From: Candidatus Lokiarchaeum ossiferum
GTDB lineage: Archaea; Asgardarchaeota; Lokiarchaeia; Sigyniarchaeales; Promethearchaeaceae
NCBI GenBank assembly: GCA_025839675.1
Contig: CP104013.1
Coordinates: 30,001-62,000, forward strand
Direction: 5' to 3'
Length of the DNA stretch: 32,000 nt
A program made the position numbers and the translations under genes. Under the pieces are notes generated by a model. That model searched no databases, was not told where the DNA came from, and worked only from the letters and a program-made list of their open reading frames with translations. Shown piece after piece: positions 1,014 through 26,513 of the stretch (position 1 is its first letter; each line of letters opens with the position of its first letter).

Positions 1014-1147
1014 TTTTACCTTGATTTTGATGAATACACTCTTTCGTTTTAATATCTACGATAATTGAGAAAATTTGTTGAAAAGACTTTTTGAAATTAT
1101 TCTTAAAATTAAAAATTAAGTGTGAATTCTCATTTTTTCAGATACTG

Positions 1148-2779
1148 ATGGATCCAGATAAGAAACTCGAGCAAAAAAGATTAATGGGAATTCGTGGCAA
1201 ATTAATGCTTAATATTCTTTTTGCCAGCGTTATTCCGCTCCTTATTACAATTAGTTATATCATGCTATTTGGAAATATTGAAACTAGCACGCGTTATGAT
1301 ATTTTGTATTTATTTATCGGGATTACACTCGTGTCCATACCAATGGCATGGATCATCGGTCGAAGATATTCTGTTGATATCGTGAAACTTAAAGAAAACA
1401 TTATTCATGAAGAAGATTCAGATTATGTCCCTCACTCCATAGAAAGAAATGATGAAATTGGTGATTTATCTAATGAATTCCTTCGTCTTACTCACAATTT
1501 GCTCGAACAATCAACATTGATTGAAAAAATTGTAGATTCCAGCGCAGCCCCTCTTATTCAACTGAATTATGATTTTGAAATTGTTTTTGTTGGCGAAAGT
1601 TTCTTAAAATTGACTGGATATTCCATGGATTATTATTTAGGGAAAAAACCGACCATTTTATACGCCAACCTTGAAGATTCTAAACGGGTCTCAGAGGTGT
1701 TTTGGAAAGAAAAGCAAATTAAAAATATAAAATATGAACTTGCAAATAATTATTCAAAGAAAATCATTGTCGAAATGTCATCTATACCTTTAATTTCTGA
1801 AGATGGGCAAAATATGGGTTATTTGAATACATATTTCGATGTTACTCAACGAGAACGTGTTATGGACTTTGTGTCTGGGATGGCTTCAAATGTTACTGCC
1901 ATGGGGGGTAATATTGAAAACCAAACACAAAAAATTAATCTTCAAATGAAGGAATTGGCAGGGTCAACTGAGTCCGTCTCTGGTAGTATCAGTTCTCAAG
2001 TGAAATCCACCCGTGCCATTCAACAGTCGTTACAAAATCTCAAAACGATAAACCAGGATATTTTAATGCAAGCCAATTTACTTAAAGTTCAGTTAGGTCA
2101 AAGTGAACAAACTGCCGAAGTCAACTTCACTTTATCAAAATCAATTGTAGATCGCATTAACGGAATCTCCAATAGTGCGGAAAGTGTCAATGACATTATG
2201 CATAATTTGTCAGATAAAAGTCAAGAAATTAATAAAATAGTCGAAGTTATTAGTGGAATTGCAACTGAAACCAACTTGCTTGCACTAAATGCTGCCATTG
2301 AAGCGGCTCGTGCGGGAGATGCCGGGAAAGGATTTGCAGTGGTCGCAGATCAAGTACGAAAACTCGCTGAAGATTCGAAAAATGCTACCAATAGTATTTC
2401 AGATTTAATTGATTCCATTCAAAAAGAAATTCAAAACTCGGTAGTAGCCCAAAACACTACCGTTGAAGAAATTCAATCTAGCAAATCGGATTTCAATTCC
2501 AGCCAGGTAGAAATGGAAAAATTATTTAATATTGTGCAACTCGCTGATCAAAGTATTCGGAACGTTGTGAGTCAAATGGATTTTCAAGAAAGTGAGATTA
2601 AAGATATCAATGAAACTATTGAATTCATCAATTCTGAAGTTGAAATGGGTTCGATGGCCTTACAAGAAATAAATGACTCAAATGGAGATGTTTCAAGCAC
2701 AATTGATGCTTTAACAAATCAGACTCAACAATTAACCGGGGAACTACAACATTTACTCGCAGAAATAAATCATTTATAA
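1148..2779 (+). CDS. methyl-accepting chemotaxis protein (2 TM, HAMP-like, PAS-like, MCP signalling domain)
   Basis: The ORF is open from TTG 1091 and the first ATG is at 1148. Two N-terminal TM helices ([41 protein letters not shown]). HAMP-like [20 protein letters not shown]-like [28 protein letters not shown]. Canonical MCP hairpin-tip signature [37 protein letters not shown]. Confidence 0.9.
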
Positions 2780-2887: not shown

Positions 2888-5158
2888 TCACCCAAGCAAT
2901 TCATTTTGAATTATTTCTATCGATTTTATTGCATTAACTGCATCTTTTAGATCAAAATTCTGATTTGTCCAACAGAACTCTTCTCGAGACGATTGATCAA
3001 TTAAGAAACATTTTGTGCAAAGGTTAATTTGATTGCAAAATTTGCAATTTCTTCTTTCTTCAACCTTGGATTTTATAGTTTCCACTTTTTTTCTAAGAGA
3101 AACATAGTTATCATCAAGATTTCCGATTGAATTACCTCGCCAACACAGTCTTATAGAATTATCTTTAGATATAATTGCTTTATCGAAGGTATTACAATTG
3201 GCCTCTTCTTTTGACCAAGGACATAAATTTTGAAAATGGGGTAGTAACTTCCTTTCTAGCAGATAATTGATACCATTGTCACTATTTTTAATTTCTTTGA
3301 GAAACTGAATCATTTTTTTAAAATCTTCATTTGTAACATCAACAACAACAATATTTTTGAAATCAGTTTCATGATCTTGATATTTCTCGTGAAAATTTAC
3401 CATCTTCAAAATTCTAATTGGATTTTTTATACTTTTTCCATAAATTAATAGTCTACTTGAGTTAAGAACTGTAGATTTCTTTGTTTTTGTCCAAATATAA
3501 TGTTCATAATGGATTGTAGGTGGAAAATTATCATAAAAGGTTGAAATGTTATTTGTATAATTTGACTTGAAAGTATCTTCATTGGAATAAAGTTGGATAA
3601 AATTGCCATTAATAGCAATGTTTTCTTGCAACCACTTCACATGCATTTTCTTTAAGATATCAGAATCAATTATTATAGATTTGAAGAATGCCCCATAAGT
3701 TAGAGATCTTGAAAATAGTGATAATGTTTTAGCAATATTGAAATCTATTTCATGTGAAATTTTGAAGAGTTCAGCTTTTTTACTAAATTGTAATTTTTCA
3801 ATTTGAAATGGATGACTATTTTCAATGAATATGTGATTTTTTAACCCCTTATAAGAAATATTATATTCAAATTTCTTATGGTTATTGTAAATAGGGGTTC
3901 CTTTCATAATTCGGAATTTATTTAATTGATAAGAATTTATGTCTAAGTATTCAACAACATTGATTGTATTTTGTGCTTCCTCTAAAGTTTCACCTGGTAA
4001 ACCAACCATGATACTTACGAAAACATCTTTAAAACCAATTTTTTTTGCATAACGTGTCATTTTTTGTAATTGTTCAATGAATTGTATTTCACCTTTGAAA
4101 TCAGATTTAGAGTGAGATGGATTAACTTTTCCAATATTTCTTAAAATTTGTGGAGAAGAACTTTCCAATGAAAAACCTATTGAAGTAAATCCTGCATTTT
4201 TCATCAAATGAAGAAGATCTTCATTTATTTTGTCGCATCGAGTAATACAAGCAAGATTAATTTTGATGTTTTTTCTTATTATTTCCTCACAAATTTTTTC
4301 AGCTCTATTTGGAAATATCGTAAATGCATCGTCTAAAATACTTATTGGCTTTTTATGCTGAAAATGACTGAGGTAGTCTATTTCTTGAATAACCCGCTTA
4401 AGAGAATGGGTGAAAATGTTCTTCTTATATAACACTGCACAATTGCAGTATGTGCAATTTTGATTACATCCTCGAGCGGATAAAATCCCAACATTGCTAG
4501 CTTCTTGAGGGGGAATAATTTTTGATAAATAAGGTGATGGATATTTGTCAATGAAGTTATTAATTTTTTTATTTGATGATAAAACATCTTTATCTGGAGT
4601 AGATATTACCCTTCCTCCGATTTTAAAAGAAACTCCCTCAATATTACTTAGGTTTTTTTTGTTTAAAATAAAATTATACTTCTTTAATTCTGTTAAGATC
4701 TCTAAAGTTGTTTCTTCTCCTTCATTTCTAATACAAATATCAATTTCTGGGATTTTTTCAACAATTTCTGATGCTTGAATAGTCGCAGTTGGACCTCCAA
4801 AAATCGTAATTATTTCAGGAAGATCTTGTTTGAGCTTTTTACAAATTGCTACAGATTGTAAATAATTGGTGTCATAAATAGTAAATCCTACTATTTTTGG
4901 AGCCATTTTGGATATTATGTTAATACATTCAGATATGTTTAATTTTTTAGGCGATATCATCTGAGAAGCGGAGAAATTGTTTTCATTTAGATAGGCAATA
5001 ATATATGAAGCCCCTAGATGATAGGAAAAAGTGTTTCCTTGAAAAATTTGTCCCGATACAAAAATAAATAGAATATCCATCTTATTCTCCTGTTTTAAAA
5101 GCTGAAAAAACTTTATAGAACTAAATGGTTCATTTTTCTCAATATCTAAATTTACCAT
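2888..5158 (-). CDS. class B (B12-binding domain) radical SAM enzyme with a C-terminal SPASM/twitch-like Cys cluster
   Basis: N-terminal Rossmann-like B12-binding pattern (ILFIFVSG..., IVGFTIYDTNY, IITIFGGPTAT). Radical SAM CX3CX2C in SARGCNQNCTYCNC. C-terminal cysteines CPWSKEEANC ... RLCWRGNSIGN ... CKFCNQINLCTKC ... EEFC. An AGGAG lies 6 nt upstream of internal ATG 5080 (MDILFIF...), so the real start may be 5080 rather than 5158. Confidence 0.85.
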   Translation of the reverse strand: MVNLDIEKNEPFSSIKFFQLLKQENKMDILFIFVSGQIFQGNTFSYHLGASYIIAYLNENNFSASQMISPKKLNISECINIISKMAPKIVGFTIYDTNYLQSVAICKKLKQDLPEIITIFGGPTATIQASEIVEKIPEIDICIRNEGEETTLEILTELKKYNFILNKKNLSNIEGVSFKIGGRVISTPDKDVLSSNKKINNFIDKYPSPYLSKIIPPQEASNVGILSARGCNQNCTYCNCAVLYKKNIFTHSLKRVIQEIDYLSHFQHKKPISILDDAFTIFPNRAEKICEEIIRKNIKINLACITRCDKINEDLLHLMKNAGFTSIGFSLESSSPQILRNIGKVNPSHSKSDFKGEIQFIEQLQKMTRYAKKIGFKDVFVSIMVGLPGETLEEAQNTINVVEYLDINSYQLNKFRIMKGTPIYNNHKKFEYNISYKGLKNHIFIENSHPFQIEKLQFSKKAELFKISHEIDFNIAKTLSLFSRSLTYGAFFKSIIIDSDILKKMHVKWLQENIAINGNFIQLYSNEDTFKSNYTNNISTFYDNFPPTIHYEHYIWTKTKKSTVLNSSRLLIYGKSIKNPIRILKMVNFHEKYQDHETDFKNIVVVDVTNEDFKKMIQFLKEIKNSDNGINYLLERKLLPHFQNLCPWSKEEANCNTFDKAIISKDNSIRLCWRGNSIGNLDDNYVSLRKKVETIKSKVEERRNCKFCNQINLCTKCFLIDQSSREEFCWTNQNFDLKDAVNAIKSIEIIQNELLG

Positions 5159-5227
5159 GATTCTTCTTCTGGTACAATTGAAAATTTTCCTCTCATTTTA
5201 AATTGAAAAAAAAGAATCTTAGAAATT

Positions 5228-5461
5228 CTAACCAATACTAACAAAAATTATTAGTGGAGTTATTTTATTAAACGCTTCAGGATCAAATCCATGTTTTTCC
5301 AATAGGTTTTGAACGAAATTTCTCATTTTTTGTTTAATTGCTTCCTGATCTTTTTCAATTTTTGATAAACGATCAAATTCTCCAAGAATTGCTTCTGTGA
5401 TCTTTTCCCCATACTTTTCAGTAAGAAGTTCTTTTATTGATTGTCTTTCATAATTATCCAA
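5228..5461 (-). CDS. small hypothetical protein (77 aa): helical acidic/basic N-terminal part and a short hydrophobic C-terminus; candidate precursor peptide
   Basis: TTG start at 5461 with GGTGA 6 nt upstream (5468-5472 on the plus strand). An AT-rich TATA-like stretch lies around 5491-5511. The stop is 69 nt upstream of the radical SAM ORF on the same strand. The sequence ends ...GFDPEAFNKITPLIIFVSIG. Confidence 0.45.
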   Translation of the reverse strand: MDNYERQSIKELLTEKYGEKITEAILGEFDRLSKIEKDQEAIKQKMRNFVQNLLEKHGFDPEAFNKITPLIIFVSIG

Positions 5462-5594
5462 AAGTTGTCACCAGTCTTTTCTCGATTTTACAATTTATAA
5501 ATATTTATTTCAAAATCCTTCGAATAATATAATTAATTATATAGGTCAAAGAAGTGGTATTTTTTAATCTGATTTCAACCTTCAAGATATTGAG

Positions 5595-7610
5595 TTACTG
5601 GATAATTTTTGAGATCAGTCTTGAAAGACTTGGTTCGTTATCCAATTTAAGGAAAAAATTATATTTCTCAGCCTTTTCAAATTTATTCCAGATTTCATCA
5701 TTAATTTGGATTTGTTCTGCAAATTTATCAATTTTTTTTTGGGCAGAATACGAATGTCCTTTATAAACATAAAAAATATGGATTGATTGTATCTTCTTTA
5801 TAACAATCATGTAGTTTCCAAATTTTGCTCGATCTAACCCTTCATCAAAAATATTTTTACTAAAGGTATTGAATGCGGAGAGAAAACTTCCGAATATTCC
5901 ATCAGAAATATTCCAATCATTCGTAAAAGATTTACTCATTAAGGGTAGACCGGTTTCTTGGGAAATAAGCAAAAATATTGGGACTTCATTACGAGAATTG
6001 ACGATCTTATTTTTAGATTTCCACATCATACTATTCAATTGATCTCTAATTTTTGCTAATCTCATACGTTCATCAATGGATATTTGATTTATATCCAAAG
6101 ATTCCCACACATCCCATTCTTTTAATAATTCATCATGTTCCATAGAAATTTTTTGCGCTATCTGCTCAATTTTGTGTGTCTGGGCATATTTTTGCGCTTC
6201 TATTAATAAAATCCTTGCTTTTTTAAGATCTAAATCTATTAATGCCATTTTTGATTCAAGTAACAATGTTTCGGCAAATAATCTTATTGAACTCTGGGTC
6301 TTTGCTGCATTCTTCAAAGTGTCAACAATTGCTTCAAGTTCATTTTCTACTTCAATATCTTGAGTTATATTTAATTCTGTTAGAAGAAGATCACATAAGT
6401 GAAGAAGTGCCCTTTCGGTTAATTCCCAAGGAATTTTTTTTTTTTCTAAAACACTTTTAAGAATATCTTCAGCTTCGATTCGAGAACGACTTCTCAAACT
6501 TGTTTTTAAGATGAGGGCTTTATCAATTTGTTTAATGAGTTTAAATATTTCTAATTTACTATTTCTACTTTCTATATTCTGTAATTCTTTAAAATAAATC
6601 TCTGCTTGTTTTATATGCCCAACTTCGAGAGACAAAATCAATAAACTATCCACGACTCCAAATAATAGAAATTCTTGGCTTACTTTCAGTTTTTTTGAAT
6701 CATTTAAGGCATTTATCAAATATTTTTCGGCTTTTAAAGGTTCACCATTTTGATGATACGCGTTCCCTATTGAATTGTTGCACCGAATAATTCCAATCAA
6801 ATTTTTATTATTCTCAGCAATTTTTAGCCCTTGTTTAAAATTTTCAATTGCAGAAGACATATCCCCCTTTGCAAGATAAATTGAACCCATCAACACTTTT
6901 CCTTCTCTATCTCTGGAGTCCGGTTCATACTTGTCTACTTTTTCAAGAATAAATTTTAGGCTTGTATCTAAATCGCCTTTTAGATAGTAATAAGTTGCCT
7001 TGTTATGTAGAGATGTTCTATACTCCCTTTGTATTCTAACAGAATTCTCCCTTTCTCTTAATTCGTCCAGTATTTGAGATGCTTGATTGAAAAATGTAAT
7101 CGACGTTTTTTTTTCTTCTGAATCTTCTCCAAATTTTTGTAAAAAATACCATCCTTTGAAATTTAAGATTTTAGCCCTTCTCAATTCAAGATTTTTTGTT
7201 AAATAACTCGATTTTTCATCAAAAACTCTTTCACAATATACAATTGTCTCCCAACTTTTAGTAAGTTCTCGCAGTTCAAATAATATTTTGGCTTTCATGA
7301 TTAAATAATCAAGAAATATTAGTTCCTCACTATTACGGGGTATATTTTTTATATTTATCTCAATAAGTTCAAGAGATTCATGAAGTTCGCCAATCTTAAA
7401 TAAAAAAACACTTTTGAAATAATTGAGTAGGATAGTTTCTAAATTATTACACACCATCTCAGATCTTATTGCATTAATATACTCTAAACCTTCTGAATAG
7501 ATTCCTTTTGATAGGTAATTCTCCAGTTGACCAATTTTCATATCAAAAATTTTATCCTGAGTAATGGTTTGCTTTATCATATATTTTCGATCTTCTATTA
7601 TTGAACCCAA
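5595..7610 (-). CDS. TPR-repeat protein with a C-terminal longin/roadblock-like alpha/beta domain
   Basis: 671-aa ORF (TTG 7610; alternative ATG 7580). There are many 34-aa TPR-like units (e.g. ATYYYLKGDLDTSLKFILEKV, MGSIYLAKGDMSSAIENFKQGLKIAE, IGNAYHQNGEPLKAEKYLINAL). The C-terminal ~130 aa (VPIFLLISQETGLPLMSKSF...DGIFGSFLSAFNTFS...FGNYMIVIKK...IFYVYKG) has the same pattern as the small protein at 30844-31302. Confidence 0.8.
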   Translation of the reverse strand: MGSIIEDRKYMIKQTITQDKIFDMKIGQLENYLSKGIYSEGLEYINAIRSEMVCNNLETILLNYFKSVFLFKIGELHESLELIEINIKNIPRNSEELIFLDYLIMKAKILFELRELTKSWETIVYCERVFDEKSSYLTKNLELRRAKILNFKGWYFLQKFGEDSEEKKTSITFFNQASQILDELRERENSVRIQREYRTSLHNKATYYYLKGDLDTSLKFILEKVDKYEPDSRDREGKVLMGSIYLAKGDMSSAIENFKQGLKIAENNKNLIGIIRCNNSIGNAYHQNGEPLKAEKYLINALNDSKKLKVSQEFLLFGVVDSLLILSLEVGHIKQAEIYFKELQNIESRNSKLEIFKLIKQIDKALILKTSLRSRSRIEAEDILKSVLEKKKIPWELTERALLHLCDLLLTELNITQDIEVENELEAIVDTLKNAAKTQSSIRLFAETLLLESKMALIDLDLKKARILLIEAQKYAQTHKIEQIAQKISMEHDELLKEWDVWESLDINQISIDERMRLAKIRDQLNSMMWKSKNKIVNSRNEVPIFLLISQETGLPLMSKSFTNDWNISDGIFGSFLSAFNTFSKNIFDEGLDRAKFGNYMIVIKKIQSIHIFYVYKGHSYSAQKKIDKFAEQIQINDEIWNKFEKAEKYNFFLKLDNEPSLSRLISKIIQ

Positions 7611-14383: not shown

Positions 14384-15883
14384 GTGCTTTCCCAAAAAAA
14401 GATAGAAACTCGCATCAAACAAGTTGCAAATAGCTACCAGAAATTTTTATTCCAAACAGAATCTCCGAAATTGCTAAGGAGTTGTCAGTTTGTTTACCAT
14501 CTTATTAGAAATATTGCTCTGTTTCGAGCCAAAATAATTCGAAATATTGATATTCTGATTGAAAATGTTGAAGATTCTAATGATAAATATTTTTTAATCG
14601 TATTTCGGGATTTGATTTTATTTTATCGTCCTCGTATACTATTTGTTTTTCAGCGGAAAGTGAAAGAGAAAATTAAATTTCCAGACGGAACCAAAAAATC
14701 TCTTGGAGAAACGGAGTCGATTCTTTTATATTCGTCTAAAGAGAAGAATTCCCAAGTCTTGGATGGCTATATTAAGATCAAAACACACCATGCTTTTGAT
14801 AATCTATCCATTGTTAATAGAATGCATCAATACGCAAAACGAGCGGGATGTTCTTCTTATATGGAGTTGTTCCTAAAAAATTCCGATTTGAATCCAATCA
14901 AATTAAAAAATGCGTGTGAAGTAATAATAGAGCAAACCATGGAGACTTATCGGGTTCTTTTATCAAAATTACTCCAATTTTTCTACCGCAAAACTATCGA
15001 TGAAGCCAATTTGACAGATATTTGGAATATATTTGCTGAACAGTTCAAAATTTCAGATAATTTCGAGTTCAAATCTGTTGAAAAATTGCTTTTTGAATTA
15101 CCCATGGTCAAGTTCCTTTGTCCTAATCCAAAAATATCTTTTCAAGTAGATTACAATCATAAAAATTGTTTAACTGGAATCGTTAACGATAGGCATCAAT
15201 TAAAAATTAAAATACAAATGACTAAATCTAAGGAATCTGCGAGTTTAAATGGAATTTTTCATGAATATGGTCATGCAATTCATTTATTGAATGTAAATGG
15301 TGAAAATGATCCTCTTTTTCCACTTATAGCGGATTCAACGATTACAGAAACGATTGCTTTTTTATTTGAATCCCTTGTCTTGGAAGAAAAAATCAACTCA
15401 AAAATACCAATGAAAGAAGAAAATCGAAAGGAAATCCTTAAATTTTTTTTGTTATTTCGCTGGCTTTATCGATTAAGAAAATCCGCTCTTCATTACATTA
15501 CTAGATACGAAATTTTATCACATCCTGAAAATTTAAACTTCAATTCCTTGAAACAAATTCAAGTTAACGTAAAATCACTTTATAAGCAGTTTTTTTTGAT
15601 AGATCATCCTTGCTATGATTTCTTAGATAATATTAATGAGAATTTCTTTTTAGATGCTAATTATTTGAGGGCTCATATCATGTGTTTTAAAATCCGCTCT
15701 TCTCTTGTAAATAATTTCGGGGATGATTGGTGGGAAAAAGAAGAAACGGGTAAGTTTTTACAAGAAAAGTGGTTTCAATATGGATTTAGTCTCCCAATGA
15801 TCGATTTAATTCCCAATCTAAGCAGGGATATCTATTCTCCTTCTAAGATAATTACTGCATTCCAATCTGATTTTATTTGTTAA
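14384..15883 (+). CDS. divergent M3-like (oligoendopeptidase F / thimet-like) zinc metallopeptidase
   Basis: HEXXH in IFHEYGHAIH, followed ~25 aa later by TITETIAFLFESL. This matches the M3 arrangement HExGHxxH ... E(A/V)xSxxxE as I recall it. GTG start. Confidence 0.7.
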   Translation: MLSQKKIETRIKQVANSYQKFLFQTESPKLLRSCQFVYHLIRNIALFRAKIIRNIDILIENVEDSNDKYFLIVFRDLILFYRPRILFVFQRKVKEKIKFPDGTKKSLGETESILLYSSKEKNSQVLDGYIKIKTHHAFDNLSIVNRMHQYAKRAGCSSYMELFLKNSDLNPIKLKNACEVIIEQTMETYRVLLSKLLQFFYRKTIDEANLTDIWNIFAEQFKISDNFEFKSVEKLLFELPMVKFLCPNPKISFQVDYNHKNCLTGIVNDRHQLKIKIQMTKSKESASLNGIFHEYGHAIHLLNVNGENDPLFPLIADSTITETIAFLFESLVLEEKINSKIPMKEENRKEILKFFLLFRWLYRLRKSALHYITRYEILSHPENLNFNSLKQIQVNVKSLYKQFFLIDHPCYDFLDNINENFFLDANYLRAHIMCFKIRSSLVNNFGDDWWEKEETGKFLQEKWFQYGFSLPMIDLIPNLSRDIYSPSKIITAFQSDFIC

Positions 15884-16042: not shown

Positions 16043-16173
16043 CTTAAAATTTTAATTGATTCTATTCTTCTTCTTGGAATTATTAATGTGAGAAGCTATT
16101 CAGACAGCAAATCATGGTAAATATTTATTAAAACGTAATCAAATATTTGTATAACAAGAAAAGGAAAATACAG

Positions 16174-17211
16174 ATGCTCCCCATTCACGAAAAATTAACA
16201 TGCCTCCTCTCAAATTTTTTTCAAGTCTCCAAACAAGCCTTAATTGCGGCGTATATTTTTGATCGGGATGGATTGCTGATTGCTAATCAAAGTCGGTTTG
16301 AACGGAATTCGCGAGAAGATTCGGAAATCTATGGGGCGATTGCCAGTGTCGTAGATCCAACTTTAAAACGAATCACCGCGGAATATCCGGGATCTTTTGG
16401 GACCGGAGGTTTTGAAACCGAGGATCACCACTTGATATTTACAGAAGCAGGACCAAAAGCAATTCTCCTATGCGTCTATGAATATCGGGTTATTATCAAT
16501 TATGAAATGCCCTATGTATTCTTGATTGCGGAGAAAATCGCAAAAATTCTTGAAGATCCAAAGGAAGATGTCGCACTCTCCGTGCCTAATCTCCATGTTG
16601 GAGAAAGCTTACCTCAGATAACACTTCCTCAATTAAACACACCCAATAAAGGTGGCGCTGCAGCTTTTGCAGATGAACAAAAACTCGTTTTCAAGTTGTG
16701 TGTTTTAGGAGATCCCGCTGTTGGAAAAACAAGTCTAATTCATCAATTCGTCACGAAGCGCTTTGAAACAGATTACAAACCTACATTAGGGATTTCCATT
16801 ACTAATCGTCGTTATAATTTGCAAGGTTTTGAGAATAAAGTTTTAGATTTTATGATATGGGATTTAGCAGGACAGAAATTTTTCCAACGGGTGCGGCAAT
16901 ATTATTATACAGGAGCCAATGCGGCGTTTATTATGTACGATATCTCTAGGCGCGAATCTTTTGAAGGGCGCATTAAATATTGGTATGATGATATCCGGAG
17001 AGCGATTCCCGATATTCCCATTGTTATCGTTGGCAATAAGCGAGATCTACTTGAGAAACGACAGGTAAAAGAAGAGGAAGGAGTAAATTTGGCAAAAGAA
17101 TTGAAATGTTCCTTCTTGGAAACCTCCGCAAAAAGTGGAGAAAATGTGAAGGATGCGTTTTCCTTGATGGGTATTGGGCTTTTTTTTAATTTTCGCTCCA
17201 TGGAAACATGA
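16174..17211 (+). CDS. Roadblock/LC7(MglB-like) domain fused to a Ras/Rab-like small GTPase
   Basis: The ORF is open from TTG 16147 and the first ATG is at 16174. The N-terminal ~130 aa fit the Roadblock pattern (ALIAAYIFDRDGLLIANQS...DSEIYGAIASVV...HHLIFTEAGPKAILLCV). After a Pro/Ala linker comes a complete G domain from ~16684: G1 GDPAVGKT, G2 PTLG, G3 WDLAGQ, G4 GNKRD, G5 ETSAK. There is no C-terminal CaaX. Confidence 0.9.
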   Translation: MLPIHEKLTCLLSNFFQVSKQALIAAYIFDRDGLLIANQSRFERNSREDSEIYGAIASVVDPTLKRITAEYPGSFGTGGFETEDHHLIFTEAGPKAILLCVYEYRVIINYEMPYVFLIAEKIAKILEDPKEDVALSVPNLHVGESLPQITLPQLNTPNKGGAAAFADEQKLVFKLCVLGDPAVGKTSLIHQFVTKRFETDYKPTLGISITNRRYNLQGFENKVLDFMIWDLAGQKFFQRVRQYYYTGANAAFIMYDISRRESFEGRIKYWYDDIRRAIPDIPIVIVGNKRDLLEKRQVKEEEGVNLAKELKCSFLETSAKSGENVKDAFSLMGIGLFFNFRSMET

Positions 17212-18503: not shown

Positions 18504-18717
18504 ATGATGCTATTTTAATTTGAACTGCGAAGTATTTTGTATTTTTTCTTTCTTCTATTTCTATTCCAATCTTTGATTTGCTGTGAAATTAAAAAAGATT
18601 TTGGATATTTGAATTCTTCTTGCAATATTACTATATAACCTTTTCAATAAAATAAGCTTACTAGCACTTATAAGAATTAAAGAACAAGTGACTTTAGTTA
18701 ATCAGAAGAGAATTATT

Positions 18718-21489
18718 ATGGATTATCGAGAGAAGCGAATCTATTTTGTGATGTCACCCCATATAAATTATTATCACTCCTTTCGTGGTGATTCCATTGG
18801 AACCGATGGTTTCGGATTGGATATCCAAATAATGGAAAATCTTGTCAAAATGGTCGAAGGTTGTGAAAATCAAGGATTGTGTCATGGAAAAATTCCTATT
18901 TCTTGGGATTATAGCGATTTGTTTTGGACAATTCAATTGCAAAAGAAATTTCAACCCGAAGTTTTAGATCAAGTAATTCGGCGGTGTAAAGATGGAAAGG
19001 ATGAGGTGATTTTGGGAACTTGGGGAAATAGTATTCTTCCCGGGCTGGACACTGAAGAATTAATTCAACAATCAAAATGGCTTCATAACAATCAAATGGG
19101 GATTGGGCTTGATCAACTTTTCCAAGGTCGTGTTGCTCCCTATATTCGAACCCAAGAAACTATGTTTACTCAAGGAATGATTGAAGTTCTATATCAACTG
19201 GGTGTGAAGGGGATTCTCAATTACTATACTGTGATTCCCTTTGATACTGCACGCCCCTTTCTTAATCCTCCTTTAGACTGGAATCAGCGGTATAATCCAC
19301 TCCATTTTCATTCCAATGTGTCGGATGCGCAGATGCTCATGATTCCAATGTATGGGTTTGGGGAGACTATGGATCATCTCTCGGTTGGCAAATGGCTAAA
19401 AAAAATTCGTAAGCACCAAAAATCGGGAGAAATACCCGGGCATGCCCTTGTGGTTCTCAACCATGATATGGATTCTTACACATGGAATGGAACTCACTTA
19501 CCGAAAATTTTGCAGTGGATGCCCAATATTGGCGGCATTTCTGAAATAATTCAAGCCGTTGATAAATTATCTTATGTTCAGTTTACCACTTTATTAGACA
19601 TTATCCCCCAATTAACACCTCAAGGCAATGTCACGCTCCATCAAGATGTGGCCGACGGGTGTTTTAACGGCTATTATAACTGGGCTCAAAAATTTGATAA
19701 CACGCGATATTGGACTATCGGTCAACAAGCGCGTTGGTTCAAATCCGCGACGGATACCTTGATTGCGGATAAAATTTGTCCCTCGACTCCCAAAACACAT
19801 TCCTTAATCCGATCTGAAGATGATAGGGAAGATAGTTATATCAAAAACAAAATTTTATTTGCTTCTACCACCAATTTTGGGATGTCAATGCCTTTTAATC
19901 ATCCCCATCGCCAAAAAACGGCACTTAAATATGGAATAAATGCTTTTAAAGCTGCAGAATTGGCGTTTATGAATGTTTTTCAATCCTTATTTCACACTAC
20001 GGATGGAATCCCTCTGAAAGAAGATCATCTTTTGATTTTGCCCATCACCCATCGTGGTGCGAGTCGTGAAGAACAAAAAATCTTTCCTCCGAAACTTCTC
20101 ATTGATTCTTCTTTTTCTCCCGAAATCAACTCATTTTTCGACCCCTTTATCGAGGATCCACTCAAAAATCTCTGGATTGAGAAATCGGAAGAAGAAACAC
20201 ATGTTCAATTTGTCCTCTCTACTCAACAATTAACACAGGAAGGGTTTTTCTTTGGAAACCAGCAACAATTTTCCACTTTAGTAGAATTAAAAGAATCTGA
20301 CTCAGAACTTCATGCGGAATCTTTGAAATTACAAAATGAATTTTTTAAACTGCAATTTGATCCATTAGGAAAAATTTCTTCTTTTTCATTTCAAGGGCAA
20401 GAATTTGCGGCTCCGCGTTTCCTCGATTCTTCTCTCTCCTTTGGAAAGAAAAATGCGGTGAAATCTTTTACCTCACAGCGAGACCAAATTTTAGTCTTGG
20501 AAGATGGTTCCAATGGATTTTGTGCTTCAGTTCAAATCACCTCCGAATTTCCTGTTGAGAAAAACAAGGTGGTTATTACCGAAAAAAATGTAACCGTATA
20601 TCATGGTTTACCTCAATTATTTGTCTCTGTGAGCATGAAAATTCCTGAAATCAATGGTAGTGCTAACAGTGATAGTAATGTTTACAGTGTAAAAGTTCCC
20701 TATGACGATCGGTGGCAAGAGATAATTCCTTGTGAGATTCGTCCGGGTTTTCTGGGACAGGAGAACTATTTGCGCATTTGGAAACATAATTTTTTGGGTA
20801 GAACAACGAGTTTTGATCTCGATCTGCAAGAAGTAGATTCTATAAATGGTGATGTGGATTGTTTTGTCGGAAATATCTCCGATGGGTGGATGGCTGTATC
20901 TAATCGAAAACAAGGGTTATTGGTTGGGTTCAATTCCCTAAAAGCGGCAAATTTTGCATTTTCACCCATTAAATGGAAGAAAAATGGGTTTGGGGATCTC
21001 CCCCACGCGGGACAACAGATCCGAATTAATCCCTTCGGGACATATTTTGGAAAAATGTTGCATCATTGGGGAACTGGAACTGGTCATGCCCAAAAAATCA
21101 TTCCCAGTTATTCTAGTACCTTTAAATCAACTGCGCCTACTTTTTCTGGAAAAAATATCCGTTTCGATTTGGTTATCAATCCGTATTTTGGAGATAAACC
21201 ACAAAAAGTTATTCAAGCTATGGCAAATCATTATTCACTTCCACCCTTGATTGTGGCTTGGAATGGGACAACTCAAAAAATCTCCCATAATTTTGGCCAA
21301 ATTCAAGCATATGTAAAAAACATAATCAAAGAATATGATATTACGTCTTTATTGGAGATGTCGTATCTGGAATGGGTGGAAAAGATCAATGAAAATCATA
21401 TTCCAGAAAATAAACGCCGAGACGATCTCAATCTAAGTGTAAAACATCTGATAACACTATTTATTGATGGAATTCGGAGTAAATTTTAA
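18718..21489 (+). CDS. large cytoplasmic protein with a GH57/GH38-clan-like N-terminal domain (putative carbohydrate-active enzyme)
   Basis: The ORF is open from GTG 18688, with an ATG at 18718. The N-terminus has RIYFVMSPHINYYHSFRGD, EVILGTWGNSILPGL, and APYIRTQETMFTQGMIEVLYQLGVKG. These resemble the conserved regions of GH57-type (beta/alpha)7 enzymes. The C-terminal ~500 aa are not recognised. The coding call is confident; the function is not. Confidence 0.6.
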   Translation: MDYREKRIYFVMSPHINYYHSFRGDSIGTDGFGLDIQIMENLVKMVEGCENQGLCHGKIPISWDYSDLFWTIQLQKKFQPEVLDQVIRRCKDGKDEVILGTWGNSILPGLDTEELIQQSKWLHNNQMGIGLDQLFQGRVAPYIRTQETMFTQGMIEVLYQLGVKGILNYYTVIPFDTARPFLNPPLDWNQRYNPLHFHSNVSDAQMLMIPMYGFGETMDHLSVGKWLKKIRKHQKSGEIPGHALVVLNHDMDSYTWNGTHLPKILQWMPNIGGISEIIQAVDKLSYVQFTTLLDIIPQLTPQGNVTLHQDVADGCFNGYYNWAQKFDNTRYWTIGQQARWFKSATDTLIADKICPSTPKTHSLIRSEDDREDSYIKNKILFASTTNFGMSMPFNHPHRQKTALKYGINAFKAAELAFMNVFQSLFHTTDGIPLKEDHLLILPITHRGASREEQKIFPPKLLIDSSFSPEINSFFDPFIEDPLKNLWIEKSEEETHVQFVLSTQQLTQEGFFFGNQQQFSTLVELKESDSELHAESLKLQNEFFKLQFDPLGKISSFSFQGQEFAAPRFLDSSLSFGKKNAVKSFTSQRDQILVLEDGSNGFCASVQITSEFPVEKNKVVITEKNVTVYHGLPQLFVSVSMKIPEINGSANSDSNVYSVKVPYDDRWQEIIPCEIRPGFLGQENYLRIWKHNFLGRTTSFDLDLQEVDSINGDVDCFVGNISDGWMAVSNRKQGLLVGFNSLKAANFAFSPIKWKKNGFGDLPHAGQQIRINPFGTYFGKMLHHWGTGTGHAQKIIPSYSSTFKSTAPTFSGKNIRFDLVINPYFGDKPQKVIQAMANHYSLPPLIVAWNGTTQKISHNFGQIQAYVKNIIKEYDITSLLEMSYLEWVEKINENHIPENKRRDDLNLSVKHLITLFIDGIRSKF

Positions 21490-22541: not shown

Positions 22542-22759
22542 GTTTTGCTTTGGTTTTTTTTTGTTCTTCATTGTAAACTTTCTTATCAAGTTCATGCGGA
22601 GTAATTATGAACTATCTATCACCATGATCCAAAATTAATTTCCAAATGGTTGACCAAATTGGAAATCGGGGATCAAGATTTAGATTGGTAAGTCTGTGGG
22701 GGCAAATTTATAAATATTATAGAGTTATATTTCATAAATCCTATTTACTAAATATCGAT

Positions 22760-24334
22760 ATGAAAATCGTAGAGATTGAAAATGTAAAATTAGTCGAATC
22801 TGAAATAGATTTTATAAAAATTATGAATATCAAGTTATCTAATACTATTGAAAGAAGTTTGAAACTGAAAGATGAAGAAGTTAGTTATGGTGAAGTGGAA
22901 GATTTTCACATCAAATCTCTATTTCTCTATGGGGATTTTGAAGCTATTCATGAAAGTATTCAGAGTTTAGAGTTTTTAAAAAAACTAATTGTTAAAAAAC
23001 ACAATAATCAATCAAGAGGAATCTCAAAAATAATTTTACCCAATTCAATTGGAAACCTCTCACATTTAGAAATTCTTGTTCTCTCTGAATATATAGAATT
23101 ATTTTTGCCTGAAACTTTTAAAAATTTAAAAAATTTGAAAGAAATCACCTTAGCTACAGTAAATTTGCAAAATACAGATATGCTTAATAATATTAATTCT
23201 CCGAAGTTGGAATATTTCAATTTAGTTTCAGAAAATCTAACTTCAATTGAAAAACAATTTTTTAATCAAAATATTTATTTGAAAACTCTTTACTTAGAGT
23301 GTATTTCTATTGAAAATCTTTCAGAAGCCTTAGGTGATCTAAAAGAATTAGAATCTTTGACCATAAAAAAGGGAATATTCTTGAGAAATATCCCTGATGG
23401 CTTGTGTGAATTAAATAAACTTGTAAACTTAAAAATTGAGCAAACAGGATTGATAAAAATCCCAGAAAATATAGGTTTATTACATAATTTAAAAAAATTA
23501 AGTATAAGTTGGAACAGATTAAAAGCACTCCCACCAAGCATTTGTAAACTTTTTAATTTAGTTGAGCTTAAAGTAGATCATAATAACATAACTAAGTTGC
23601 CTGATGAAATTGGGGCGATTTCTTGTTTGGAAGAATTATTCCTTAATAATAACAAATTGCAGGAAATTCCGTCATCATTTGGAAATTTGCGAAAATTGAA
23701 AATAGTTGATTTTTCAAATAATGAACTTAACAATTTTCCTGAAATAAAATGCAATTTTCAATTTACTACAAAAATCAATTTATATAGAAATAAACTTACG
23801 AAGCTTCATCCTAGCATTGGAAAAATGGTTGGATTACAGGAACTCAATTTAAACAGTAATTTTATCCAATATTTACCTGATTCTATTGGAGATTTCCTGA
23901 AATTGGAGAAGTTTACTATCAATACTAATAAATTAAGTCAATTGCCTGATTCTATGAAGAAACTTAAAAATATGATGATTTTTGAAATTTCTTCTAATAA
24001 ACTTCAAGAAATACCCGATATTTTCGGACTATGGACAAAATTGAAAAATCTTGATTTAAGCAGAAATCAGATTTCCTCATTACCTGCGTCAATTTCAAAA
24101 TTAGAAAAACTACAAGAATTTTTTGTAGGATTCAACAAAATTGAGAATTTTCCATATGAGATAGAAAATCTACTAAGGATTGAAACGTTGGATTTAAGTA
24201 ATAATCAAATAGCTAATCTTTCAAAAAAAGTCAAAATTCCTAAATCCCTCACGTTTCTAAATATGTCAAAAAATCCTAAGGTTTTCAAGATGGATGATTT
24301 TATTACAAAAGATAAATTGGAAACATTATTCTAA
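22760..24334 (+). CDS. leucine-rich repeat protein (roughly 18 repeats of ~23 aa, LxxLxLxxNxLxxLPxxIgxL type)
   Basis: The ORF is open from ATG 22646. ATG 22760 (MKIVEIENV) is the more plausible start. Repeats include LKKLSISWNRLKALPPSICKLFN, LVELKVDHNNITKLPDEIGAISC and LEELFLNNNKLQEIPSSFGNLRK. No Roc/COR or other catalytic domain is present. Confidence 0.9.
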   Translation: MKIVEIENVKLVESEIDFIKIMNIKLSNTIERSLKLKDEEVSYGEVEDFHIKSLFLYGDFEAIHESIQSLEFLKKLIVKKHNNQSRGISKIILPNSIGNLSHLEILVLSEYIELFLPETFKNLKNLKEITLATVNLQNTDMLNNINSPKLEYFNLVSENLTSIEKQFFNQNIYLKTLYLECISIENLSEALGDLKELESLTIKKGIFLRNIPDGLCELNKLVNLKIEQTGLIKIPENIGLLHNLKKLSISWNRLKALPPSICKLFNLVELKVDHNNITKLPDEIGAISCLEELFLNNNKLQEIPSSFGNLRKLKIVDFSNNELNNFPEIKCNFQFTTKINLYRNKLTKLHPSIGKMVGLQELNLNSNFIQYLPDSIGDFLKLEKFTINTNKLSQLPDSMKKLKNMMIFEISSNKLQEIPDIFGLWTKLKNLDLSRNQISSLPASISKLEKLQEFFVGFNKIENFPYEIENLLRIETLDLSNNQIANLSKKVKIPKSLTFLNMSKNPKVFKMDDFITKDKLETLF

Positions 24335-25382: not shown

Positions 25383-26513
25383 ATGAAGTATTCACAATTT
25401 TATAAACATCTATTTGGAAATACTCTCTTATGGGTATTTAGTTTAGCTGGCTTTGTCCTGTTTAGCTATATTTTTCGCTTAGAAATGGATTATTTCCAAG
25501 CAGAGGGACATAACGGATTTATTATCTTTTTTCCATTAACTGCCTTCAGTGTCTATTATTTATATATGGTAAACACATTTACGCATAATATCAAAAATAG
25601 TCTATTAATCCCTACTGAGAGTAACATTCCTCATCAAATCTTGAAATTTGGTCTTATCTGGATCGATTTATACCTCTATCTCTTATTACAAATTGATCCT
25701 ATGGATAATGATTTAGTCTGGTACTTTTTGGGCTTGAATATGCTTTTCCTCTTTGTATATTTTCTTTCGATTAAAAAAACTCGAAGACCCGATCTTGATC
25801 AATATTATTTGATCCATCAAAAATCTGATCCCTATTTATCCCTGTTAATTATGGGAGGCTATATTCTATTTAATTTGATATCTTTGTGGTATAACTTCAC
25901 TAAAATTGTTTTAGTCACAATTTTCGCCTTCTTTATTGCGGCTAGAATAGTCCATTTCTTCGCTATCCAAGAACAAAAACAAAAAATTCTAATGGTTATC
26001 GGAATTGTAATTTTAACAAATATGATCTTTTGGTTATCTGCAAGCATTACCGTAATAGCTATGCTTATGGTAGACTATTTATCCCTTCCCTATTTATTCC
26101 AATATATTCCCACTGTTTTCTTTGGTGTTCATCTTTTGATTTTGTCGAATCTGAAAATTTATAATATGTGTCAACATTTAATAAGGATATCTCCAGAGGC
26201 AGAAATCGTGGATGATTCTGGGGAAATTCATCCAAAACAAACGACATCTCACATAGTTACTGAACAATTGGTGCAATATAGCGCACAAATTGATTTTTCA
26301 TGTCCTCAGTGTAGGTCTCCAATAAGTAAATCCATTATTCAACACTTGAAAGTAAACAATAAATTATTTTGTCCTCATTGTGGATCAAAAATAACTCAAA
26401 AGGATTTTTCGAGCAGATCTCCAGATGAAATCTATTTAGAACATCAAAAACTTCTATCATCCCTGACGAATCCATCAGACCAGAATTCTCGGCTAAAAAC
26501 TCAATTCAATTAA
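25383..26513 (+). CDS. polytopic membrane protein (about 9-10 TM) with a C-terminal zinc ribbon
   Basis: Hydrophobic helices run through the first ~260 aa. The C-terminus is CPQCRSPISK...FCPHCGSKI. Confidence 0.8.
   Translation: MKYSQFYKHLFGNTLLWVFSLAGFVLFSYIFRLEMDYFQAEGHNGFIIFFPLTAFSVYYLYMVNTFTHNIKNSLLIPTESNIPHQILKFGLIWIDLYLYLLLQIDPMDNDLVWYFLGLNMLFLFVYFLSIKKTRRPDLDQYYLIHQKSDPYLSLLIMGGYILFNLISLWYNFTKIVLVTIFAFFIAARIVHFFAIQEQKQKILMVIGIVILTNMIFWLSASITVIAMLMVDYLSLPYLFQYIPTVFFGVHLLILSNLKIYNMCQHLIRISPEAEIVDDSGEIHPKQTTSHIVTEQLVQYSAQIDFSCPQCRSPISKSIIQHLKVNNKLFCPHCGSKITQKDFSSRSPDEIYLEHQKLLSSLTNPSDQNSRLKTQFN

Follow-up and report, generated by a model that had tools for sequence, protein, structure and literature searches.

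Introduction

The C-methylation of hydrophobic ribosomal peptides by B12-dependent radical SAM enzymes is established for the PoyB group (PMC10288494), as it is for the clavusporins (PMC10849626). A further cobalamin-type radical SAM enzyme, ApyD, belongs to a RiPP cluster whose precursor, ApyA, carries its modification close to the C-terminus (bioRxiv 10.64898/2026.05.07.723658). B12-dependent radical SAM enzymes also act on large proteins, as exemplified by QCMT (PMC13469106). The SPASM domain, found in another set of radical SAM maturases, contains seven or eight cysteines (PMC10352776).

RiPP-type chemistry in archaea has barely been explored, and our literature search turned up no description of it for the Asgard group. 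In the window, that is, the whole stretch of 32,000 nucleotides analysed here, an initial annotation had pointed to a small ORF beside a B12-binding radical SAM enzyme, a combination that it considered unusual for an Asgard-like archaeon. Our data show that this gene pair is widespread in Asgard archaea and that, together with a gene for a TPR-repeat protein, it looks like an undescribed system in which a peptide of ribosomal origin is modified at its tail.

Results

Gene organisation of the locus

The Asgard origin of the window was confirmed, its source being closely related to Ca. Lokiarchaeum ossiferum. The small ORF is located directly 5' of the enzyme gene, both on the minus strand, and the TPR gene lies directly upstream of the small ORF in the window as well as in L. 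ossiferum (Table 1). Every enzyme homolog starts at the equivalent of M27 of the longest ORF, the L. ossiferum gene is annotated as 730 aa, and a GGAG element precedes this ATG; therefore, the enzyme gene most likely extends from the conserved start at position 5080, leaving a gap of 147 nt to the small ORF. The gap of 69 nt given in the initial annotation applies to the start of the long ORF (5158) and does not hold for the conserved one.

Both signals that had been assigned to the small ORF, namely an SD element of its own (GGTGA) and a TATA box (TTTATAAA), are present in the sequence and conserved in L. ossiferum. TTTATAAA would act as the promoter element of the small ORF. In addition, the T8 run between the two genes may serve as an archaeal oligo-T terminator or as an attenuator; at least five T in a row occur within 60 nt past the small-ORF stop in 20 of 21 archaeal loci.

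Table 1. Features of the locus, in window positions; residue numbers of the enzyme follow the 756-aa ORF.
Feature	Position	Strand	Remarks
TPR-repeat protein	5595..7610	-	Longest ORF, 671 aa; Pfam TPR_1/TPR_12/TPR_8, N-terminal repeats
TATA-box-like TTTATAAA	5494..5501	-	About 36 nt 5' of the small-ORF start codon; identical in L. ossiferum
SD-like GGTGA	5468..5472	-	6 nt 5' of the small-ORF TTG; kept in L. ossiferum
Small ORF	5228..5461	-	77 aa, TTG start; precursor-like protein; ORF call
Helical N-terminal region of small ORF	5312..5461	-	About residues 1-50, conserved; followed by a linker
Hydrophobic tail of small ORF, KITPLIIFVSIG	5231..5266	-	C-terminal end of the ORF
T8 run	5206..5213	-	15 nt past the small-ORF stop; between small ORF and enzyme gene
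Longest enzyme ORF	2888..5158	-	756 aa
GGAG SD-like element	5087..5090	-	6 nt 5' of the conserved enzyme ATG
Conserved enzyme ATG	5078..5080	-	M27 of the long ORF (MDILFIF)
B12-binding radical SAM enzyme	2888..5080	-	730 aa from the conserved start
B12-binding (Rossmann-like) domain	4697..5020	-	Residues 47-154; PF02310, 50.9 bits (cut-off 32.1)
Radical SAM core	3959..4480	-	Residues 227-400; PF04055, 77 bits (cut-off 29.5)
CX3CX2C motif	4445..4468	-	C231-NQN-C235-TY-C238; invariant cysteines
Family-specific alpha/beta middle domain	3284..3811	-	About residues 450-625; confidently modelled
Eight-cysteine SPASM-like C-terminal domain	2972..3223	-	C646-x8-C655-x16-C672 ... C705-x2-C708-x5-C714-x2-C717-x11-C729

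A class-B radical SAM enzyme outside the curated families

The Pfam models for the N-terminal B12-binding domain and the radical SAM core match the enzyme above their cut-offs, and the FGGP and D-x-C...EGEE motifs of the B12 domain, with residues G121, G122, D140, C142, E148 and E149, are invariant. A search with the AF2 model of the enzyme (pLDDT 81.5) returned CysS, TokK and TsrM as the best Foldseek matches (E of about 1e-14 to 1e-12, probability 1.00). The enzyme therefore has the class-B (cobalamin-type) radical SAM fold, in line with the core originally assigned to it. AprD4 is also among the hits, so that the fold alone is no proof of methyltransferase chemistry.

The search for homologs yielded 626 sequences, with full-length relatives at 36-47% identity. 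The family measures about 740 aa at full length and is present in many Asgard lineages as well as in Bacteroidota, Aminicenantes and other bacteria; compared with L. ossiferum, the gene shows a dN/dS of 0.24. The best NCBIfam match was ApyD (NF050148), with 106.7 bits against a cut-off of 750 (E=1.1e-30, residues 82-440). The scores of the other models, with cut-offs in brackets, were 106.8 for HpnJ (577.6), 103.7 for PhpK (600), 101.5 for BchE (481), 80.5 for KedN5 (700), 67.8 for rSAM_ocin_1 (281.85) and 58.1 for QCMT/MJ_0865 (360). Membership in the curated class-B subfamilies was rejected, as the enzyme falls far under every NCBIfam cut-off. The architecture as a whole, in which a B12 domain and a radical SAM core are followed by a novel middle domain and then by the eight cysteines of the C-terminal domain, matches no curated family.

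The non-peptide families HpnJ, PhpK and BchE score the enzyme as high as RiPP enzymes do. This would suit an enzyme whose substrate is something else, for example a lipid, an intermediate of a cofactor or a different protein, with the small protein as a non-substrate partner (chaperone, specificity or activating subunit, or regulator). The adjacency of the two genes would then point to an enzyme of two subunits. We regard such a partnership as unlikely in view of the variability of the small proteins described below.

The C-terminal half of the enzyme begins with the middle domain, which has no Pfam match and no PDB fold match better than E=0.05, and which is a candidate docking site for the small protein. 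It is followed by the cysteine cluster that had been termed SPASM-like at the outset. All eight cysteines are invariant in the 26 homologs, and the CX2CX5CX2C motif (C705-KF-C708-NQINL-C714-TK-C717 in the window) occurs in all 39 locus-encoded enzyme copies. The SPASM motif reads C-x(9-15)-G-x4-C ... CX2CX5CX3C ... C; the last spacing of the window motif is 2 instead of 3, and the predicted order of elements (Cys, beta-hairpin, Cys, helix, Cys cluster) fits.

No SPASM model was significant on the window protein itself. Specifically, the SPASM model of Pfam was found neither in the window fragment nor in 14 homologs, even at E<=10, and the NCBIfam models TIGR04085 and TIGR04148 (GG_samocin), which miss the window fragment, weakly matched three (best E=0.002) and two of the 14 homolog fragments, respectively. 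A Foldseek search with residues 446-756 returned no SPASM enzyme (best E 0.05, unrelated folds), and the PDB sequence profile revealed no SPASM relationship. In addition, about 200 residues separate the radical SAM core from the cysteine domain, which accordingly does not follow directly after the core. Homology to SPASM is suggested by the cysteine pattern and the predicted topology, with weak support at the sequence level.

A family of small proteins linked to the enzyme

The loci surveyed span Promethearchaeota, Hod- and Hermodarchaeota, Bacteroidales, Aminicenantes and Hebobacterum, and 33 of them, having enough upstream sequence, were informative. At 31 of these, a homologous ORF of 57-100 aa lies 5' of the enzyme on the same strand and 56-200 nt away, with one extra tandem copy at 377 nt; at the other two no family member was detected, L028 having none and L020 a positional ORF only. 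The family HMM (A2), which scores the window ORF at 54 bits, gave 42 matches among 4767 ORFs, each of them beside a homologous radical SAM gene and none elsewhere. An HMM built from other Asgard small ORFs only (c4-only, window ORF excluded) recovered the window ORF with E=2.8e-6 among 2370 ORFs, and the homology across domains is reflected in HMM E-values of 1e-6 to 1e-25. The reverse look-up, starting from small-ORF homologs in a collection of 5.8 billion proteins, agrees: wherever the contig was long enough, a B12/radical SAM gene of 733-741 aa was always next. Conservation and adjacency in relatives, on which the initial annotation had made its proposal depend, are thus found in Asgard archaea and in several bacterial phyla.

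The L. ossiferum orthologue of the small ORF is 91% identical. The N-terminal 18 and the C-terminal 11 residues are the same in both, and all seven amino-acid changes past the start codon fall at residues 19-66. These seven non-synonymous and two synonymous substitutions, which are very small counts, give a dN/dS of about 0.86; this value, the TTG start and the lack of a known family (no Pfam or NCBIfam model matches the ORF) might suggest a chance intergenic frame that is not a gene. However, the orthologue is intact, starts with ATG and is annotated, and long ORFs are unlikely to arise by chance in AT-rich sequence. The cross-domain homology and the perfect positional specificity effectively refute such an origin, to which we assign a negligible probability.

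The N-terminal region of the small proteins can be aligned across domains (alignment A2). The tails, in contrast, vary; they are hydrophobic, with many beta-branched and aromatic residues. The tail types (for example HWVT[VA]G, NYETIG[RS], SFVIVG and VFIP[SA]PP[DE]LNI) track the enzyme tree, with an Asgard consensus of aromatic-x-T/S-V/I-G. Tandem duplicates with differing tails are found beside one enzyme at L012, L021 and L031, and locus L030 encodes three enzymes and three peptides. Small ORF and enzyme therefore display near-obligate adjacency across two domains of life, together with co-diversification, and the leader-plus-core shape foreseen for the small protein is borne out by the family. 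Two hallmarks of RiPP pairs are seen here, namely a short ORF consistently beside the enzyme and the succession of a conserved leader-like and a variable core-like region. The earlier impression of a Nif11-type leader was not confirmed: the models for Nif11 (PF07862/TIGR03798), NHLP (TIGR03793) and other leaders had zero matches among the window ORF and 25 family members at E<=1. Small proteins of the Loki subgroup carry a twin CX3C and show weak Tim10-type matches.

The size of the small proteins and their apparently folded helical N-terminal domain imply that they could be stable partners of the enzyme, not cleaved precursors. The cysteine pairs and Tim10-type matches of the Loki subgroup point the same way, as does the near-ubiquity across Asgard lineages, which suggests a housekeeping role. 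Accessory subunits, however, are normally conserved over their whole length, whereas in this case the tails are highly variable and change along with the enzyme, and copies with different tails accompany a single enzyme. The difference in dN/dS between small ORF and enzyme weakens the substrate reading and was counted against it. Weighing the sequence data, we lean towards the small protein being the substrate of the adjacent enzyme.

Alternatively, the pair might yield a peptide-derived cofactor or small metabolite in the manner of PqqA/PqqE or MftA/MftC; the last few residues of the tail would then be cross-linked or otherwise processed by the enzyme and excised by unlinked housekeeping proteases. 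The eight-cysteine SPASM-like domain, the small precursor gene directly upstream, the fairly conserved Gly-ending motif of the Asgard tails and the broad, apparently vertical Asgard distribution are in keeping with this, and 9 Asgard loci have a conserved M3 oligopeptidase in the vicinity. Nonetheless, this peptidase is absent from the neighbourhood of the pair in the window and from the bacterial loci, and the tails differ strongly between bacteria and archaea and even within Asgard archaea (for example VFIPSPPDLNI versus HWVTVG), which argues against one universal cofactor. To our knowledge, the PQQ and mycofactocin enzymes lack a cobalamin domain. All together, we consider a peptide-derived cofactor quite improbable.

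The TPR protein and the gene neighbourhood

The TPR orthologue of L. ossiferum starts at an ATG equivalent to position 7580, which gives 661 aa, and dN/dS between the two genes is 0.16. The C-terminal domain of about 170 aa is conserved and matched no entry of PDB or Pfam. At 21 further Asgard loci a member of the same cluster (c1) lies directly downstream of the enzyme, while in Bacteroidota a different TPR protein of 711-787 aa, with only generic TPR-repeat similarity to the archaeal ones, adjoins the pair. A TPR protein of about 700 aa completes the conserved module as its third member in both Asgard archaea and Bacteroidota, and loci of Aminicenantes, Hebobacterum and Hodarchaeota retain the small ORF without an adjacent TPR gene.

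As the other conserved neighbour in both domains, the TPR protein could be the true substrate, or the enzyme could act on another cellular protein, as Mmp10 and QCMT do on methyl-coenzyme M reductase, with the small ORF unrelated and merely co-transcribed; Mmp10 is a weak structural match of the enzyme. This is very unlikely, however, as the small ORFs are homologous across domains whereas the TPR proteins are only generically similar, and the small ORF, being always immediately upstream, is linked to the enzyme more tightly than is the TPR gene, which is not adjacent at some loci.

Apart from the TPR protein, archaeal and bacterial neighbourhoods are unrelated. At archaeal and bacterial loci alike, the module lacks a conserved leader peptidase, exporter or RRE/PqqD-like domain; the missing protease and exporter would also accord with a non-substrate role of the small protein. 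On the other hand, the pathway genes that a lipid- or cofactor-modifying enzyme might be expected to have are not conserved around the pair across domains.

Discussion

The data presented above are most likely explained by a new RiPP-like precursor/maturase module. The substrate status of the small protein, the part of it that is modified, the chemistry, cofactor binding, what the TPR protein does and where the product ends up are inferences from the genomic data. The small protein would be expressed from its own promoter and ribosome-binding site, and the oligo-T tract past its stop would probably allow more transcript to be made of the small ORF than of the enzyme gene. The conserved helical region of about 50 residues would serve as a leader-like recognition element. 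It would bind the enzyme outside the catalytic part, perhaps at the middle domain, or the TPR protein, or both, and the hydrophobic tail KITPLIIFVSIG would enter the active site.

Here, a 5'-deoxyadenosyl radical generated at the CX3CX2C cluster would take a hydrogen off an unactivated carbon, and methylcobalamin, by analogy with class-B enzymes, would most likely give the methyl group. The expected outcome would be C-methylated residues of the Val/Ile/Thr type, possibly modified repeatedly. This C-methylation of the tail is a tentative proposal, drawn from related enzymes. The eight-cysteine domain may bind one or two auxiliary Fe-S clusters that take part in electron transfer, and the product may stay intracellular, because no protease or exporter is conserved.

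The archaeal and bacterial enzymes are 36-40% identical, and Lokiarchaeum and Bacteroidota agree in gene order; together, these findings document that the entire module was transferred between domains. More speculatively, the TPR protein, the small protein and the hybrid cobalamin/eight-cysteine enzyme might represent an undescribed class of ribosomal peptide or protein modification, spread over most Asgard lineages and several bacterial phyla. Its enzyme would unite, within a single polypeptide, the cofactor sets of class-B and SPASM enzymes and introduce a new modification of C-terminal tails. The TPR protein could read the modified tails as an intra- or intercellular peptide signal in the archaea most closely related to eukaryotes.

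With its two or three genes, the cassette is compact and includes a clear candidate for the substrate. It is present in the cultivated L. ossiferum as well as in numerous Asgard and Bacteroidota genomes from metagenomes. Through the enzyme, novel radical reactions or a new coupling of cobalamin with auxiliary Fe-S clusters could come to light, and the conserved TPR partner offers a handle on the cellular role of the product.

Comparison with known systems

The methyltransferases CysS, TokK and TsrM match the window enzyme over the B12 domain and the core (E from 4.5e-14 to 1e-12, about 450-500 aligned columns, 14-18% identity). Their substrates are non-ribosomal or small molecules, and they leave the C-terminal half (residues 446-756) without a structural match. 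HaaT, the TPR protein of cyclophane RiPP clusters (NF041717), resembles the case in the window in being a large TPR protein whose gene adjoins those for a small peptide and a radical SAM enzyme, and its similarity to the window TPR protein is negligible (E=0.017, 13.3 bits, cut-off 1125).

The SPASM maturases, which include PqqE, MftC, AlbA, SuiB, CteB and GG_samocin (TIGR04148), share with the window a small precursor gene immediately upstream. They also resemble it in the C-terminal pattern C...C...C, CX2CX5CX(2-3)C, C, whose seven or eight cysteines (PMC10352776) would suffice for two auxiliary clusters. Unlike the window enzyme, they have no cobalamin domain and carry SPASM directly after the core, not some 200 residues away, and in the window enzyme no RRE/PqqD-like domain was detected. 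As for ApyD, it aligns with the window enzyme over the B12 and core region only, and the P450 of the apy cluster (ApyO) has no counterpart at the window.

A similar layout is seen with the PoyB/PoyC group of proteusins, the clavusporin enzymes and rSAM_ocin_1 (TIGR03975). None of these enzymes is known to have the extra alpha/beta domain of about 180 aa and the eight-cysteine domain of the window enzyme. In contrast to their clusters, the locus has no further tailoring, protease or export genes, and its small ORF matches no leader model. Like the window enzyme, all three types place a B12 domain before the radical SAM core, and next to them is encoded a precursor that begins with a long leader-like portion and ends in a hydrophobic portion rich in Val/Ile/Thr; these enzymes methylate unactivated carbons (PMC10288494; PMC10849626).

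Conservation of the small ORF beside the radical SAM gene

A locus scan with one genome per species returned 43 loci of enzyme homologs (numbered with the prefix L). In 34 of them the match either spans the whole enzyme or most of it, or is truncated at the end of a contig. Nearly all of these 34 loci carry an ORF of 57–100 aa on the same strand, 56–200 nt upstream of the enzyme gene. Usable upstream sequence is available for 33 loci, and 31 of these have a detectable member of the small-ORF family, the exceptions being L028, with no member, and L020, with a positional ORF only; L017 is cut off and was left outside the 33. An HMM built on 13 Lokiarchaeial small ORFs (cluster c4), the window's own being excluded, was run on a database of 2370 ORFs: it detected the window's small ORF at E=2.8e-6 and the Bacteroidales members at about 1e-5, with no match away from an enzyme gene. 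Likewise, a 25-member HMM searched against 4767 ORFs (at least 30 aa, all loci) gave 42 matches, all 42 adjoining a homologous enzyme gene. The small-ORF homologs retrieved from a 5.8-billion-protein collection are all annotated as hypothetical and lack a Pfam domain. In the reverse look-up, a B12/radical SAM gene of 733–741 aa followed the small-ORF homolog on every sufficiently long contig. The adjacency that the initial annotation had suggested looking for in relatives is therefore present, the reverse look-up agreeing with the locus scan. In conclusion, comparative genomics strongly backs the pairing of the small ORF with the enzyme.

Tandem copies of the small ORF, two each, occur in L012, L021 and L031. 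In L030 (Aminicenantes WVZO01000533, 4900..16000), three tandem enzyme paralogs are interleaved with three small-ORF members, whose tails read GIVNGFFYPIVFPQ, GIVYGFIVP and GIVYGFIYP. This locus also encodes a 4'-phosphopantetheinyl transferase and three Cys-rich peptides whose N-terminus resembles a GG-type leader, and looks like a larger natural-product cluster.

In the protein search both proteins matched Candidatus Lokiarchaeum ossiferum best, the enzyme at 94% identity and the small ORF at 91%. Synteny between its locus (L044, CP163304.1) and the window is complete, running from the TPR protein through the 77-aa ORF and the enzyme to the convergent PAS/MCP gene. These matches place the window in an Asgard archaeon closely related to L. 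ossiferum. Between the two small ORFs, all seven amino-acid changes past the start codon fall within residues 19–66, the first 18 and the last 11 residues being unchanged. In the same comparison dN/dS is about 0.86 for the small ORF, a value based on nine substitutions only, whereas the enzyme has 0.24 and the TPR gene 0.16.

Gene layout and signals

The layout first described was recovered from the minus-strand sequence, which contains the small ORF, its GGTGA and TTTATAAA elements, and the enzyme with its C-terminal cysteines.

Features of the window; residue numbers of the enzyme domains refer to the 756-aa ORF
Feature	Position	Strand	Details
PAS + MCP-signal chemoreceptor-like protein	1091..2779	+	convergent with the enzyme gene
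Enzyme ORF	2888..5158	-	756 aa, longest ORF
B12-binding domain of enzyme	residues 47-154		Pfam, 50.9 bits
Radical_SAM core of enzyme	residues 227-400		Pfam, 77 bits
T8 run	5206..5213	-	after the small-ORF stop codon
Small ORF	5228..5461	-	77 aa, TTG start, C-terminal end KITPLIIFVSIG
GGTGA	6 nt ahead of small-ORF start	-	sequence
TTTATAAA	~36 nt upstream of small ORF	-	sequence
TPR-protein C-terminal domain	5595..6119 (175 residues)	-	strongly conserved alpha/beta, ~170 aa
Ras-family small GTPase domain (residues 183-340)	16147..17211	+	N-terminal extension of ~180 residues
Leucine-rich-repeat protein	22646..24334	+	562 aa

The longest enzyme ORF begins with a 26-codon N-terminal extension (5081..5158, minus strand), which is absent from all homologs and has an AF2 pLDDT below 50. 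Since Met27 (MDILFIF) is the start of 25 out of 25 aligned homologs, its ATG (5080) is preceded by GGAG and the L. ossiferum gene is annotated at 730 aa, the real enzyme gene is most likely 2888..5080 on the minus strand, starting at that ATG. The 69-nt gap initially reported thus holds for the longest ORF and becomes 147 nt from the conserved start. In addition, a run of at least 5 T lies within 60 nt past the small-ORF stop codon in 20 of 21 archaeal loci, a pattern that fits partial termination after the precursor gene and ahead of the enzyme gene. No riboswitches, other RNA elements or tRNAs were found in the window.

A class-B radical SAM enzyme with an eight-cysteine domain

The proposal that the enzyme is a B12-binding radical SAM protein was borne out by both Pfam domains and by a class-B fold match. 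Specifically, the radical SAM motif is C231-NQN-C235-TY-C238, and the AlphaFold model (pLDDT 81.5) retrieved with Foldseek the class-B enzymes CysS, TokK and TsrM and the related AprD4, with E-values from 4.5e-14 to 1.8e-10. The protein search gave 626 homologs, from Promethearchaeota (Lokiarchaeia), Thor-, Hod-, Odin- and Hermodarchaeota as well as from bacteria; past L. ossiferum, the relatives are full-length (about 735–755 aa) and 36–47% identical. A 26-member alignment shows no variation in the three radical SAM cysteines, in several B12-domain motifs (FGGP, D-x-C, EGEE) or in any of the eight C-terminal cysteines. None of the NCBIfam curated cut-offs was reached, the enzyme scoring (cut-off in brackets) 106.7 bits for ApyD (750), 106.8 for HpnJ (577.6), 103.7 for PhpK (600), 101.5 for BchE (481) and 67.8 for rSAM_ocin_1 (281.85). 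The enzyme is a class-B radical SAM protein outside every described subfamily.

The C-terminal half consists of a confidently modelled alpha/beta domain (residues ~450–625), followed by a 110-residue C-terminal part holding the eight cysteines: C646, C655, C672, C705-x2-C708-x5-C714-x2-C717 and C729. The predicted order over residues 640–730 is Cys, beta-hairpin, Cys, helix, CX2CX5CX2C, Cys. This predicted order resembles that of SPASM domains. Their stated hallmark is a set of seven or eight cysteines serving two auxiliary clusters (PMC10352776).

Direct searches for a SPASM domain were mostly negative. Pfam SPASM gave no match at E<=10 in the window's C-terminal fragment or in 14 homolog fragments; a PDB sequence-profile search with the C-terminal domain found no SPASM protein; Foldseek gave no SPASM confirmation with the full enzyme model, and nothing better than E=0.05 with a separate model of residues 446–756. 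When 1.84 billion representatives were searched exhaustively with a profile, the eight-Cys domain was found in 432 proteins, and among the best 150 of these almost all are of B12/radical SAM size (about 700–890 aa) or fragments. Pfam detected no SPASM in 10 divergent carriers from this search, analysed as a transitive test. Sequence-level support comes from NCBIfam matches only: TIGR04085 (SPASM) weakly matched 3 of the 14 homolog fragments (best E=0.002) and TIGR04148 (SPASM-containing peptide maturase) weakly matched 2, these being the two families most often matched by the fragments. The initial annotation of a SPASM-like cluster thus stands as to its roughly eight cysteines including CX2CX5CX2C; its HMM check failed with Pfam and gave weak NCBIfam matches in 3 of 14 homologs. 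Because most direct tests failed, we keep to the label "SPASM-like": the domain probably binds Fe-S clusters and is a candidate member of the SPASM family.

In one 624-aa carrier, P0275, the eight-Cys C-terminal domain lies behind a class-I SAM-dependent methyltransferase domain, which replaces the B12/radical SAM part.

Anatomy of the small protein

In the small-protein alignment, roughly the first 50 residues form a conserved N-terminal region, after which come a variable linker and a short hydrophobic tail. The N-terminal region has the pattern T/S-h-K/R-x-h-h-x-x-x-F/Y/L-G, followed by two more helical stretches. One Lokiarchaeial subgroup (L006, L007, L012, L016, L018, L034 and others) carries twin CX3C motifs in this region (ECIQECI ... 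CIxxCL), which suggest a helical hairpin stabilised by disulfides or by metal; no cysteine is present in the window's small ORF. Two members of this subgroup weakly match the Tim10/DDP zinc-finger family. Most of the Asgard tails terminate in aromatic-x-(T/S/I)-(V/I/A/L)-Gly (HWVTVG, YWATVG, NYETIGR, SFVIVG; FVSIG in the window). The bacterial tails differ from these but likewise contain a high share of Val, Ile, Leu, Thr, Pro and aromatic residues. When the loci are ordered by the enzyme tree, identical tail types group together, which indicates that peptide and enzyme co-diversify.

The early impression of a Nif11-type leader was not upheld, as no Nif11, NHLP or other leader model matched any of the 25 members. 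Pfam and NCBIfam gave only scattered single matches on these members, DUF4168 for instance at 24 bits, under the cut-off and in one member only, and a known leader family was rejected.

The TPR protein and other neighbours

Neighbour clustering placed a TPR protein of about 685 aa (cluster c1) directly after the enzyme in 21 other Asgard loci, while in the window and in L. ossiferum its orthologue (5595..7610 in the window) lies upstream of the small ORF instead. The trio of TPR protein, small ORF and enzyme stays together despite this rearrangement. In Bacteroidota, the pair has a TPR protein of 711–787 aa beside it, in most cases upstream; the genes around them are otherwise unrelated. The archaeal and bacterial TPR proteins were rejected as orthologs, since hhalign aligned one 47-column TPR-repeat stretch, a generic repeat similarity only. 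The pair occurs without an adjacent TPR gene in Aminicenantes, Hebobacterum and Hodarchaeota L004. Neither Pfam nor the PDB sequences gave a match for the C-terminal domain of the TPR protein (consensus ...PVLLLIIGEGGFPLFS...LISGFLSAFNSFSGELF...), which gives a longin/roadblock-like impression.

The order TPR, small ORF, enzyme is common to the Lokiarchaeum window and Bacteroidota L047, L049, L054 and L055, whereas the other Asgard loci have the order small ORF, enzyme, TPR. This shared order, together with an enzyme identity of 36–40% across domains, points to inter-domain transfer of the module, in either direction.

Upstream of the small ORF in L001–L021 lie two further small ORFs without family assignment, both absent from the window: c5 (~84 aa, C-terminus ...NAKYLxE...RNxAxY), syntenic in 11 loci, and c13 (~66 aa, ...KRWKQSFxYYxLHPEKFxFGLKDLK), syntenic in 6. 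In other Asgard loci, genes for Ras-family GTPases often lie nearby. Within the window, Pfam at E<=1e-4 matched none of the large ORFs 14384..15883 (499 aa), 18688..21489 (933 aa), 25383..26513 (376 aa) and 29228..30277 (349 aa).

Proposed function and comparison with known systems

The most economical reading of these data is that the small ORF encodes a precursor-like substrate protein and that the enzyme acts as its class-B radical SAM maturase, with the TPR protein possibly assisting the maturase or acting after it. Around the pair, neither a peptidase nor a transporter is conserved between the domains, an M3 oligopeptidase being syntenic in nine Asgard loci only. Because a protease and an exporter are lacking and the N-terminal domain looks folded, the module may yield a small protein that carries the modification, and not a peptide for secretion. 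On the same two observations, the small protein may alternatively be a subunit of the enzyme and not its substrate.

As to the chemistry, C-methylation of the hydrophobic tail is the leading guess, because of the analogy with the PoyB group (PMC10288494) and with the clavusporin enzymes (PMC10849626), and because of the fold similarity to iterative methyltransferases. With its eight-Cys domain, the enzyme might also carry out redox or cross-linking chemistry.

The small-ORF family and the enzyme subfamily are both missing from Pfam and NCBIfam, and we found no description of either in the literature searched. Lipid-modifying radical SAM enzymes (Grs, Gmm, Gms, Tes) were rejected as the identity of the enzyme, since the GMGT paper has separate B12 and SPASM proteins: the proteins described there have neither a B12/SPASM fusion nor a peptide partner, whereas the window enzyme is a fusion, with a SPASM-like domain, beside the small ORF. 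Unlike in canonical SPASM enzymes, about 200 residues separate its Cys domain from the core. RiPP-like radical SAM systems are themselves of a known kind; what sets this one apart is its hybrid enzyme architecture, its cross-domain distribution and its prevalence in Asgard archaea.
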